From assembly GCA_012295275.1 (NCBI GenBank), contig CM022667.1, forward strand, positions 6,448,001 to 6,512,000: a stretch of DNA of 64,000 bases. The letters run 5' to 3'. This DNA comes from Chrysomallon squamiferum (Eukaryota; Animalia; Mollusca). The notes beneath the pieces are model-generated. The model had not been told where the DNA came from. It saw only the letters and a program-made list of their open reading frames with translations, and ran no database searches. Shown here piece after piece: positions 794 to 54,040 of the stretch; positions within the stretch are counted from its first letter, which is position 1; each line of letters opens with the position of its first letter. Both the position numbers and the translations under genes were made by a program.

Positions 794-860
794 ATGATTC
801 AGAACATCATATCTACAGTTACTCTGGTCGTCTGTCTTGCTGCTGTTGACTTGATTAAAG
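794..860 (+). CDS. Gene A signal-peptide exon MIQNIISTVTLVVCLAAVDLIKG
   Basis: tttatag acceptor at 787, ATG at 794, hydrophobic core, phase-1 donor AAAG|gtaact; ends in (I/V)KG like the leaders of B and E. Confidence 0.75.
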
Positions 861-3102
861 GTAACTAAAGAGATATGTTTTATACAGAAAAAATGTGAAT
901 ATATCATTATATATGTCACATTTTCATAACTAACAGTATCTTTCAGATATAGTGTATGTGTTTGAATCCCAAGTAAATTTAATTATCCAGAATTTAACAA
1001 CAATAATCGAACAAACATATAAGAACATTTAAACATTACCCAAATGCATAATGTTTAAGTAATAATAATAATTATAGTGTTTATTTAAAGAAAATGAAGT
1101 TTTATAATTATCTCTAAACCATAACAAATATTATTAAAAAACACTGTCATCATATATAACATTGTTACACAGCAAACAAGTAAAAAAGCTTAAACCAATG
1201 TGGGTAATTAGTTTTATAGTATTTTCTGTTAATTACATTTTTGTTATTAAATGTCCTAGTAATTGTTTTTCACTTAAAAAACACTTCCAACAACTTTTTT
1301 CAAATATTAATTCAGATAATTATATGGGTATGGGTGGGTGTCTAGTTGTGAATAGTTTGTAATATTTACTTTAATAATGATAAGTAATCAAGATTATATT
1401 AAGAAAATATCAGTTATAGTAGTTCTGAATTGTTTTCTTTCTTTTTGTTTTGTTTTTTGTTTTTTTGTTTTGTTTGTTTGTTGTAATTTTCTGCAAAATT
1501 GTTACAGATTTTTGAGTCCATGAAAGGAAAACTATTTACAACCACTTATACATAAGTGCCTCTTCAATAGTTGTGTCCTTGGTAATACACACAGTCTACA
1601 CTGACTAATGCAGTACTTTATTATCTAGGAAGTCAGACAAGAATATACGAAAATGGTGATCATTTAAAACTATTGATTGATGGTAAAAGAAGACTTTAGA
1701 TTTTAACCCTTGAAATGAAGTTGGCAACAAATTATTTTTATATATGAATTCTGATATTTAAAAAGTCCTCTAGATTAAAATCCCCCTAATTCAATCACTC
1801 TGTTTGATCAGAAGCCTTCTTGCCTGAAAGCCCTATATTGATAATAGGTAGTATTAAAAAATAAAAAAAATAAAAAAATAAAGAATCCTAGAGAAATAAA
1901 ATTAAGCCTTAGATAAAAACTCATATTTATATTCTGCTAATGAAAGTCCTGATATTTACTTTGGGGTACTGTTTGTATACATCAAAACATTCATATTATG
2001 ATTTTCTTACTTGTTATATGTCAGAATACAAACATCAACTAAGGGGTTTTGATAGTTCACGAGCTTCCATAATTCTGGAAAGAACAGTGCTGGATCCTTG
2101 TTGCCCAAATGAATTGATGTATTTTATATTCTGAACCTCCCTTTACCCTTGTGAATTCTTCGCTGTCCTTATGCTGAGTAATGCATGGAATTAAATTTGC
2201 TGTGAATTTAACACAAAGTTATGTATTGCACTTTAGCTTAAGGATTTGATGTTGTCAAAAATGAAATGCTGCATACAGTTATAGATGAATTTGGAAGGAT
2301 GTTAGGTTTTTACCATGAGGTGTGCTTTGCTATTCCTTAAATATACAGGGAACCACAAAAGAATGTCATTGCTGCTGCTATTTTGTGAAACTTCTGTGAA
2401 ACAGTCTATAGCTGGTATTTTAACTGGATGAGAACTTTAAGATGTTTCAGTCACATGAATATGGAGACAAAAAATAAATCAAAGGATCAAAATATCTTGA
2501 GGGCACTTGAGAAATTGGTAAATTTCACTGGGAATAACAAATGATAATTAGGAAAAGCTTAATTAATGGTAGGTGTCTTTGGTAATACATTTCTTCTATT
2601 TCTCTTCCATTTCTGCAGTGAATAATACACCAATAAAAATGCCAAATATGGAAAGAACATATCAAGGAAGATGGAAATATAACAATGGCACATCCAGGGA
2701 ATTAAAATGCGTGATAACTCATCAAGGCAGCAGTGAAAATTTTGAAAAAATGTTCATCATTATGTGATTTCTAATTTTTGTTGTTGAATTATGCATGTGC
2801 AGTAGAGCATCTATAATGTATATTAAATAACATTTAAAATCTGTCAACATAATGCCCTTTATGACTGTAGTTGAAAAATTGATGAATTCATGAGGGAAAA
2901 AATGTATTAATATTCCATAAGCAATAGTATGTGCCTAAAACAAATACAGCTAGCCTTCATTTAGGTATTTCTGCATAGATGTATTCAGCCACATATGTGC
3001 CATTTCAGGATACACATATAATATTGGGAATATATATAACTAGCTTTTGTCTGTAATCCCTGAAGATATAAGGCAAAATCTTAATACCTGAAATTTTGTA
3101 AT

Positions 3103-53400: not shown

Positions 53401-54040
53401 ACATATTAATTAATAATAGTTCTTCCTAATAATTTTGTATTGGTTTCATTATCTTTAGAATTTGTATTATTGTATTGATTACTTTCTGAAATTGTATTCC
53501 AGTAATGTGATATTTTCCAATAAAACTAGAAAAATTATGATCAATGGAGAAAAAAAAAAAAGAAGAAATGAAAAAACTAATATATGGGTTTTTTTTTTTC
53601 ATAACACGTAGATGGAAAGCACATCTATGGAAATGACAATATCACCTTTGTTGAGGACAAGAAACCAAAGAAGCCACGAAAAGAAAAAACTGAGGTACGT
53701 AAAATATATCTCCTTTATTCTTAATTTAATTTAATTACATATTTCTTAGTTACAGTTATATCAGAATCTCCACCAAATTGTATTTAAAAAAAAAAAAAAT
53801 TAAAAATAAAATAAAAGAAATAAAATAAATTAAATAAAATGATTTTCATTGTTTTTACAGCCAGCAACAGCTAAAAGAAGAAATGAATGTCAGCTGGTTT
53901 ACACTGAAATTGAGTTTACAAATGAGAAAATGTCACAGCCCATGAACAAAAAAGAAGAACCAACAGTGTACATTCAGATTGACTTCTCAAAGAAAGCCCC
54001 ACAGTTGTCTGATGATGATAATCAACAGAACACAAAATAA
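44433..54040 (+). CDS. Gene E: ITIM/ITSM-type Ig-superfamily receptor (802 aa if repaired); 2-nt frameshift in Ig4 as assembled
   Basis: Exons 44433-44499, 44980-45285, 46993-47253, 47621-47878, 48621-48897 (277 vs 279 nt), 49673-49978, 50640-50939, 51244-51396, 51719-51826, 53217-53324, 53612-53694, 53861-54040; dead exon at 52251-52321. Confidence 0.82.
44630..44979 (+). repeat. Tandem copies of the V-exon acceptor plus exon start (gene E)
   Basis: taattacag|gtgag at AG 44703-04, 44804-05, 44891-92 and the true acceptor 44978-79. Confidence 0.9.
44980..45285 (+). CDS. Gene E V-like Ig exon
   Basis: ORF 45006-45368; 306 nt, 6 Cys. Confidence 0.9.
46993..47253 (+). CDS. Gene E Ig domain 2 exon
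   Basis: Hand-translated, open, 261 nt. Confidence 0.9.
47621..47878 (+). CDS. Gene E Ig domain 3 exon
   Basis: ORF 47641-47901; 258 nt. Confidence 0.92.
48621..48897 (+). CDS. Gene E Ig domain 4 exon, frameshifted
   Basis: aactcagtct where A and C have aactcaaagtct; split between ORFs 48410-48676 and 48690-48905. Confidence 0.85.
49673..49978 (+). CDS. Gene E Ig domain 5 exon
   Basis: ORF 49639-50022; 306 nt. Confidence 0.92.
50640..50939 (+). CDS. Gene E FN3 exon
   Basis: ORF 50618-50977; 300 nt, open. Confidence 0.92.
51244..51396 (+). CDS. Gene E transmembrane exon
   Basis: Uncharged TM followed by RRRK; intact donor. Confidence 0.88.
53861..54040 (+). CDS. Gene E last exon with ITIM LVYTEI and ITSM TVYIQI
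   Basis: ORF 53849-54040; tttttacag acceptor, phase 0. Confidence 0.85.
   Translation, partial: PATAKRRNECQLVYTEIEFTNEKMSQPMNKKEEPTVYIQIDFSKKAPQLSDDDNQQNTK

Follow-up and report, generated by a model that had tools for sequence, protein, structure and literature searches.

Putative activating and inhibitory immunoglobulin receptors interleaved in one gene cluster of the snail Chrysomallon squamiferum

The window analyzed here is a 64,000-nucleotide stretch of Chrysomallon squamiferum DNA (assembly GCA_012295275.1, contig CM022667.1, positions 6,448,001 to 6,512,000, forward strand), and it contains four related receptor genes, called A, B, C, and E, that span positions 794 to 54040. Genes A and E lie on the plus strand and have tails of the ITIM type (immunoreceptor tyrosine-based inhibition motif); genes B and C lie on the minus strand and have tails of the corresponding activation motif (ITAM) type. 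The two types are interleaved within 54 kb and oppositely oriented, and thus show the one-cluster arrangement of paired receptors. The window has 29% GC, many microsatellites, and exon-sized repeats in both orientations. Gene models were built by manual reading of splice sites, and they confirm the claim of an earlier reading of this DNA (the sequence-only reading) that four genes carry related stalk exons, with gene C matching from Ig4 onward only. The same reading implied that all four were intact, and this did not hold, as stops, frameshifts, and a lost splice site were found in A, C, and E. Gene B comprises the following features.

19386..26724, minus strand: gene B, ITAM-type receptor without lesions; 705 amino acids (aa) from 11 exons
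Gene B exons, minus strand, at splice sites: signal 26724-26664; V 26138-25809; immunoglobulin (Ig) domain exons Ig2 24965-24705 and Ig3 24248-23991
Gene B exons, minus strand, at splice sites: Ig4 23102-22824; Ig5 22074-21769; FN3 21497-21198; transmembrane (TM) 20684-20565
Gene B tail exons, minus strand, at splice sites: 20379-20346, 20104-20046, 19495-19386
25809..26138, minus strand: V-set Ig exon of gene B, with six Cys and a Phe where the copies of the snail Gigantopelta aegis have Trp
19419..19463, minus strand: ITAM of gene B (YSSL-x7-YSVL), then VYENS (YxN), kept in G. aegis

Every intron of gene B has GT-AG ends, and the reading frame is open through to the stop. The encoded order is signal peptide, V-set domain, four Ig domains (Ig2-Ig5), FN3, a TM rich in Gly, and a tail of 70 residues bearing the motifs SLYDDL, YSSL-x7-YSVL, and VYENS. 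Pfam recognizes Ig or I-set domains in Ig2-Ig5 and fn3 in FN3, and it gave no match for either V exon, the B TM exon, or the last tail exons. The TM of gene B (20565-20684, minus strand) contains a Glu that is also present in a second ITAM-like class of G. aegis (TET/IET) and absent from the B-type copies of that species; no basic residue for an ITAM adaptor was found in the TM. The other three genes are disrupted as assembled.

44433..54040, plus strand: gene E, ITIM-type receptor with Ig4 frameshifted as assembled
Gene E exons, plus strand: signal 44433-44499; V 44980-45285; Ig2 46993-47253; Ig3 47621-47878
Gene E exons, plus strand: Ig4 48621-48897 (2 nt short); Ig5 49673-49978; FN3 50640-50939; TM 51244-51396
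Gene E tail exons, plus strand: 51719-51826 (VLYSVV), 53217-53324 (DLYAVV), 53612-53694, 53861-54040 (LVYTEI, TVYIQI)
52251..52321, plus strand: dead copy, in gene E, of the tail exon encoding AEYALV; lacks splice acceptor and donor and is 2 nt longer
794..13218, plus strand: gene A, ITIM-type (E-type) pseudogene
Gene A exons, plus strand: 794-860; 5183-5488; 6454-6714; 6882-7139; 7640-7918; 8751-9056
Gene A exons, plus strand: FN3 9930-10229 (TGA 10163-10165); TM 10534-10686 (donor AT)
Gene A exons, plus strand: 11015-11122; 11369-11437; 12415-12522; 12822-12904; 13039-13218 (TAG 13078-13080)
28146..34633, minus strand: gene C, ITAM-type (B-type) pseudogene
Gene C exons, minus strand: signal 34633-34558; diverged Ig 33756-33502 and 32864-32611 (frameshift)
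Gene C exons, minus strand: Ig4 31272-30994; Ig5 30900-30599 (two stops, frameshift); FN3 30368-30069
Gene C exons, minus strand: TM 29190-29094 (deletion, frameshift); tail 28876-28843, 28562-28504, 28249-28146 (YSSM-x7-YSVL)

Gene E has the same set of ectodomain exons as gene B. Its Ig4 exon measures 277 nt rather than the 279 of A, B, and C, so that the frame is lost after 48655 and a stop follows at residue 316; its tail of 174 residues, with VLYSVV, DLYAVV, LVYTEI, and TVYIQI, stands behind a Val-rich TM. Gene A bears three lesions, namely the TGA in FN3, a TM-exon donor (10687) that reads AT where GT is expected, and the TAG in its last exon. It also has an additional tail exon encoding AEYALV, the gene E copy of which has lost both splice sites, and a stray partial copy of the FN3 exon 3′ end lies in its Ig5/FN3 intron (9178-9249, plus strand). 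Gene C has frameshifts in IgY, Ig5, and TM and two stops in Ig5; no V exon was found, and the identity of the two Ig exons upstream to Ig2/Ig3 is 54-64%.

Behind the related stalks stand two unrelated modules of TM and tail, as had been proposed from the letters alone. The TM exon is uncharged and Val-rich in A and E and Gly-rich in B and C, and the alignment of the B and E modules scores only 57. All named tail Tyr motifs are in frame, inside exons with GT-AG ends. In the ITIM-type genes, VLYTVV lies at 11044 (A) and VLYSVV at 51748 (E), DLYAVV at 12435 (A) and 53237 (E), and TVYIQI at 13141 (A) and 53963 (E). These three motifs of the original proposal are present in both genes, but the fourth, LVYTEI, is present only in E (53894) and is absent from A because the TAG occupies the place of gene E's Tyr. 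The YSS(L/M)-x7-YSVL motif claimed for B and C was recovered as YSSL at 19463 (B) and YSSM at 28217 (C), with YSVL seven residues on. DLYAVV falls outside the ITIM consensus of Huene et al. When the E tail was shuffled 20,000 times, no shuffle reached its three matches to ITIM or to the switch motif (ITSM), and an ITAM arises in 0.3% of shuffled B tails. Because the motifs were named beforehand, conservation in G. aegis is a better control than shuffling.

With one stalk exon as query, all 18 matches were G. aegis proteins (44-70% identical), and these carry nephrin-, hemicentin-, syg-2-, CEACAM-, or contactin-like names, in keeping with the nephrin or hemicentin misannotation that had been predicted. 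The G. aegis protein P0017 as query returned 24 matches, 22 of them from G. aegis and two fish CD22-like proteins at 25%. The 29 G. aegis paralogues (P0001-P0029) lie mostly on one 53-Mb contig, and no close homologue was found outside gastropods, where the next match has 25% identity. The strict pattern of an activating member, Yxx[LI]x6-9Yxx[LI], is present in gene B and in the B-type tails of five of the 29. A second, related tail is found in seven (YEGL-x7-YAKM..YENL in five, degenerate in two), whereas seven more have the same TM with a modelled tail that is short or unrelated, three have other TMs, and six have none. The remaining protein, P0004, has an E-type TM, and its gene model ends early. 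The gene B ITAM is kept as YSSL-x7-YDVL..Y(E/D)N in P0017, P0018, P0019, and P0023; over TM and tail, gene B is identical to P0019 at 58 of 101 positions (score 295), with all three terminal Tyr motifs kept. The gene E TM exon matches P0004 at 22 of 48 positions (score 126). Since each TM class has a G. aegis match, both are older than the split of the two snail species. One G. aegis tail, that of P0025, consists of four tandem copies of the ITAM-bearing last-exon unit.

The stalks follow a different pattern from the tails. Genes B and E are 83-94% identical at the amino acid level from Ig2 to FN3, compared with 52-76% between B and its G. aegis tail orthologues, so the ectodomains of the two classes are indeed similar in this part. 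Trees were built of Ig5 plus FN3 (22 rows) and of Ig2-Ig4 (15 rows), omitting gene C, isoform P0033, and any protein without the segment; in them A, B, and E form one clade (100/100) apart from all G. aegis sequences. In approximately unbiased (AU) tests, trees in which B was held with its tail orthologues, or A and E with P0004, were rejected (p = 2.5e-5, 5.6e-7, and 5.4e-36), and with them a grouping of stalks by tail class. Tails thus sort by class across species and stalks sort by species. The same is seen in G. aegis, where P0004, with its E-type TM, groups with P0002 and P0010 of the other TM class (95/91).

Synonymous divergence (dS) between B and E is 0.066 in Ig2, 0.034 in Ig3, 0.086 in Ig4, 0.19 in Ig5, and 0.14 in FN3. 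Across the cores of four exons (about 160 sites), only five synonymous differences occur, and differences accumulate at the exon edges. The introns of B and E can be aligned over 0-128 of 271-888 nt; those of A and E downstream of Ig5 align at 91-95%. For Ig2 and Ig3, dS is lower between B and E than between A and E. Such a pattern is better matched by gene conversion that acted repeatedly between the classes and was confined to exons than by one chimeric duplication. A single event of chimeric exon shuffling was rejected as the cause of the stalk likeness because the introns would have come along. Because exon-core dS is near zero, the introns cannot be aligned, and the stalk trees conflict with the tail classes, the locus shows the signs of conversion known of paired receptors. 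Xenopus CEACAM pairs likewise combine signs of exon-limited conversion with opposite orientation (PMC5112662).

The near-identity proposed for the ectodomains does not extend to the V exon. Genes B and E agree there at 65 of 109 aa (60%) and B and A at 71 of 109, with cross-class dS of 0.55-0.69 (B-E, 0.69). Nevertheless, the V exons of both classes form one species clade (98/96). An AlphaFold2 model of the gene B V exon has nine strands (pLDDT 92.7), and its best structural matches are antibody and T-cell receptor (TCR) V domains (Z 14.5, root-mean-square deviation 2.1, 107 residues aligned); the best 50 VIA matches are all V domains of antibodies, TCRs, or CD8 (Z 12.7-14.5). Domain 1 is therefore modelled as a V-set fold with C′ and C″ strands, despite the lack of a Pfam V-set match. 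A V-domain profile search of a representative library gave 116 relatives, 41 of them with a predicted TM. An ITIM-like match occurs in two of these 41, one a Haliotis protein and one probably spurious. The 19 relatives that were looked up comprise 11 from G. aegis, five from Haliotis, one fish FcRL, and two unnamed proteins. Many proteins of G. aegis and Haliotis that are short or have several V domains (P0035-P0150) also contain this domain; they have Tyr-poor tails or hydrophobic C-termini and make up a large unannotated gastropod V-domain family. In the window, two to four tandem copies of a unit of ~90-106 bp precede each V exon (4836-5200, 26110-26452, 44630-45008, and 17258-17396). The unit holds the V acceptor and first codons but then meets stop codons, and may provide decoy acceptors or a recombination hot spot.

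Public sequencing runs were used to assess the tail exons, a check that the sequence-only reading had called for. The stalk is present in nine runs, and in four of them all contigs were placed on gene E 48600-51840. In RNA run X8, contigs skip exactly 775, 304, and 322 nt, which are the Ig4/Ig5, FN3/TM, and TM/tail-1 introns of gene E; these joints were absent from the three other runs. The spliced chain in run X8 (Ig4 to Ig5, and FN3 through TM and tail exon 1 to tail exon 2) is of the ITIM type. The check therefore supports splicing of ITIM-type TM and first tail exons, but in part from other paralogues. One X8 contig runs from tail exon 1 into an exon like the AEYALV exon of gene A that reads GTEYA instead, and another joins a different FN3 end to an E-type TM. 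Because the GTEYA and FN3-end strings are absent from the window, further ITIM-type paralogues or alleles are expressed. A 915-nt contig in run X5 represents a further E-type copy, with 53 differences. Relative to intron contigs of the same run, one FN3-core contig has a depth of 12-20x and one Ig4-core contig ~80x; these depths hint at many family copies and do not give a copy number. A loose end of run X8 before 50640 joins the end of an Ig3 exon straight to FN3, as in an isoform or a paralogue without Ig4-Ig5.

Taken together, these results likely describe a snail receptor family that is large and turns over fast. Its single-pass members combine V-set, Ig, and FN3 domains and have two old classes of tail, of which one is predicted to activate through its ITAM and the other to inhibit through ITIM and ITSM motifs. 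Exon-limited conversion, acting repeatedly between genes of opposite orientation, has likely kept the stalks of the two classes alike. In the general ITAM/ITIM scheme, ligand clustering and Src-family phosphorylation lead to Syk binding on ITAM and SHP or SHIP binding on ITIM and ITSM (PMC3533184). By analogy, a ligand bound by the variable V domain would cluster the receptor, and a Src-family kinase would phosphorylate the tail. YSSL-x7-YSVL of gene B would then recruit Syk, and pYEN of the same tail Grb2, leading to uptake or killing, and E-type tails would recruit SHP-2 or SHIP and damp the B-type signal. The balance of the two might decide between attack and tolerance of a microbe or cell. 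Arguing from analogy, our guess is that the ligands are most likely microbial surfaces, of pathogens or symbionts.

We consider it probable that this is a convergent, paired-receptor-like immune family with activating and inhibitory members that evolved independently of the vertebrate families, as the sequence-only reading suggested. The genomic features of a paired-receptor family likely all occur here except V-domain likeness, and functional pairing is a prediction. What sustains the proposal is the ITAM tail conserved in G. aegis, the ITIM-type RNA joints, the V-set fold, and the exon-limited conversion. On the inhibitory side, the motifs are in frame and RNA splices the TM and first tail exons.

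Several observations weigh against this interpretation. In the assembly, B alone of the four genes is free of lesions, and an ITIM-type gene that is both full-length and undisrupted was not seen. Among the window genes the V domain, which is the part converted in CEACAM pairs, is shared least, and because it is least alike between B and E, a shared ligand is not implied. We found no excess of replacement changes in V, where dN/dS is 0.37 for B-E and 0.83 for A-E (three sequences, one of them a pseudogene). The E-type ITIM tail was found in none of the 29 G. aegis homologues, among which the P0004 model ends early, and a search with the last exon of gene E gave five candidates, none at E<=10, which is weak evidence. 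A strict ITAM was found in none of the 41 TM-bearing V-domain relatives. The signalling sign of B-type tails is also not certain, as that of gene B matches the loose ITIM consensus twice (SLYDDL and SPYSVL) and has a YxN. Lastly, the RNA joints come from one run of one study and at least partly from paralogues outside the window.

In one alternative, the family has two signalling classes that do not form functional pairs, with stalk likeness a neutral by-product of conversion between inverted neighbours, V domains that bind different ligands, and a locus largely in decay. We regard this alternative as unlikely, although the 60-65% V identity between classes, at dS 0.55-0.69, and the disruption of three of four genes speak for it, and the converted stalk is no less complete in pseudogenes A and C than in B. 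However, conversion ends where the exons end and is found again in each of the two species between other class partners, the V exons of the two classes have stayed in one species clade, ITIM-type transcripts are spliced, and the DNA beyond the window may contain copies whose V exons are closer, as contig depths hint.

An adhesion or developmental role (nephrin/SYG-2/NCAM-like, epithelial or in the shell field), with tyrosines that dock Nck, Grb2, or SHP-2 outside immunity, is less likely still. It would agree with the nephrin-, hemicentin-, and syg-2-like database names, with Ig plus FN3 plus TM being a common adhesion layout, and with Atlas look-alikes of the FN3-to-tail part, which are DSCAM and NCAM clusters (0.87-0.91), generic and a lead only. 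These genes are not single-copy, however, given the 29 G. aegis paralogues and no close non-gastropod homologue, and among 12 Protein Data Bank (PDB) sequence matches of a G. aegis homologue nephrin and SYG-2 were absent and CEA was best. To our knowledge, conserved adhesion genes are not typically accompanied by pseudogenes and conversion. Nephrin/SYG-2 and hemicentin are conserved low-copy genes with eight or more Ig domains; the present genes do not fit this description, with five Ig domains, a length of 705 aa, multiple copies, and no close homologue found outside gastropods.

That all lesions are assembly errors and all four genes intact is very improbable. The single lesion of gene E, the loss of 2 nt within a short run of A, is shown by no read sequence among the matches listed, and two run X5 contigs read 48655 without it in A/E-type context, but these are not assignable to E over a paralogue. 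Gene A, moreover, carries three lesions and gene C five or more, all independent; some are substitutions and so unlike the usual indel errors.

Among known systems, the CEACAM pairs (human CEACAM1/CEACAM3 and those of Xenopus; PMC5112662) resemble the paired-receptor-like snail family in having one cluster, an N-terminal V followed by more Ig domains, some members with ITIM/ITSM and others with an ITAM of their own, opposite orientation, exon-restricted conversion with unrelated introns, and pseudogenes. Unlike them, the snail genes have FN3, and snail conversion covers the stalk and not V (60%, compared with 80-93% in Xenopus). Vertebrate CEACAMs have an N domain followed by C2 domains and lack FN3; membership of the snail genes among them is not supported, as FN3 is present and the CEA match of the G. 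aegis homologue (E 1e-34) covers only Ig2-Ig3-type repeats, a generic Ig similarity. Hydractinia Alr genes (10.1101/2022.03.04.482883, PMC9546547) are likewise clustered invertebrate Ig-superfamily (IgSF) genes, whose unusual V-set, I-set, and FN3-like domains each occupy one exon, with ITAM in some tails and ITIM in others, and many pseudogenes; they differ in that the snail protein has five Ig domains and stalk domains recognized by Pfam. No link to Alr was found among the 19 V-domain matches looked up. The Botryllus FF/FcoR system (PMC12582321) also has polymorphic IgSF clusters, ITIM, hemITAM, and an [A/D]VYxxV 'core-2' motif similar to DLYAVV, but there a ligand-binding chain works with a separate signalling co-receptor and motifs are swapped by splicing, whereas the snail family joins ectodomain and tail in one chain and its classes are separate genes.

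Molluscan receptors with such tails have been described singly. Oyster CgIgR has a similarly spaced ITAM, co-precipitates CgSyk, and promotes phagocytosis (PMC6994640), and its YTEL-x7-PYEKL-type motif resembles the YEGL-x7-YAKM tails of G. aegis; CgNCAM1, with three Ig domains, FN3, and two ITIMs, recruits CgSHIP2 (PMC11841013). Unlike the snail genes, both are described there as single genes and not as a cluster with shared ectodomains, and the likeness is by description only. A review of invertebrate IgSF proteins (PMC11999971) likewise names molluscan receptors only singly in its available part. Lan et al. (PMC7895826) report an expanded 'CEACAM5' orthogroup, OG0000013, with 130 members in G. 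aegis, 101 in C. squamiferum, 59 in Lottia, and 103 in Bathymodiolus, and hemicentin-, nephrin-, and CEACAM5-like genes up-regulated in the G. aegis oesophageal gland (log2 fold change 4.2-5.6); the main text of that paper mentions neither ITAM nor ITIM and does not describe tails or pairing. This orthogroup is also an expanded Ig family, and several members of ours have CEACAM-like NCBI names, but OG0000013 and the gland genes would be linked to the present family by names only. We found no account of the family's tails or of a molluscan paired cluster in a literature search whose coverage mostly excluded subscription papers.

Paired receptors with converted ectodomains have been described as a vertebrate strategy, and among invertebrates a cnidarian and a tunicate are known to have ITAM/ITIM clusters; in the papers found, molluscan ITAM or ITIM receptors appear only as single genes. 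We know of no allorecognition phenotype in solitary snails. If the proposed pairing is true, the logic of activating and inhibitory pairs, together with the arms race presumed to drive it, arose again in protostomes and lay hidden under nephrin and hemicentin labels, with the stalk converted and the V domain left to diverge, in contrast to the vertebrate cases. The cluster would then offer testable candidates for how a mollusc tells tolerated from attacked microbes. The further claim that this is the first true protostome paired immunoreceptor complex, evolved independently in vent snails, with ITAM/ITIM pairs re-matched by conversion in each species and setting tolerance versus digestion of bacteria, possibly including oesophageal-gland endosymbionts, is tentative and rather doubtful.

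The window also contains remnants and an exon of a second N-terminal type.

13750..13826 (approximate ends), minus strand: orphan copy of the C-type signal-peptide exon (blastn 13725-14183 versus 34532-34990, 88%)
17340..17516 (approximate ends), minus strand: gene remnant with an orphan B-type signal exon and only the start of a V exon
41220..41561, minus strand: open exon with splice ends for the second N-terminal domain type of G. aegis members (tblastn to P0029, 38% identity, E 1e-18)

The pseudogenes and remnants are consistent with birth-and-death turnover. Dispersed non-coding repeats (37871-39024 with 57332-58632, and 3170-3700 with 59186-60250) are probably remnants of mobile elements, and the run of N at 57132-57331 is a 200-base assembly gap. 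In G. aegis, members swap two N-terminal types on one stalk: the second type occurs in P0008, P0015, P0021, and P0023, and P0022 and P0029 carry the N-terminal domain types at other positions. The stalk is reused with another recognition head in P0031 (XP_041372560), encoded on the same 53-Mb contig, in which SRCR domains are fused to the Ig2, FN3, and TM stalk of the family and followed by a tail of repeated PPYDTL.

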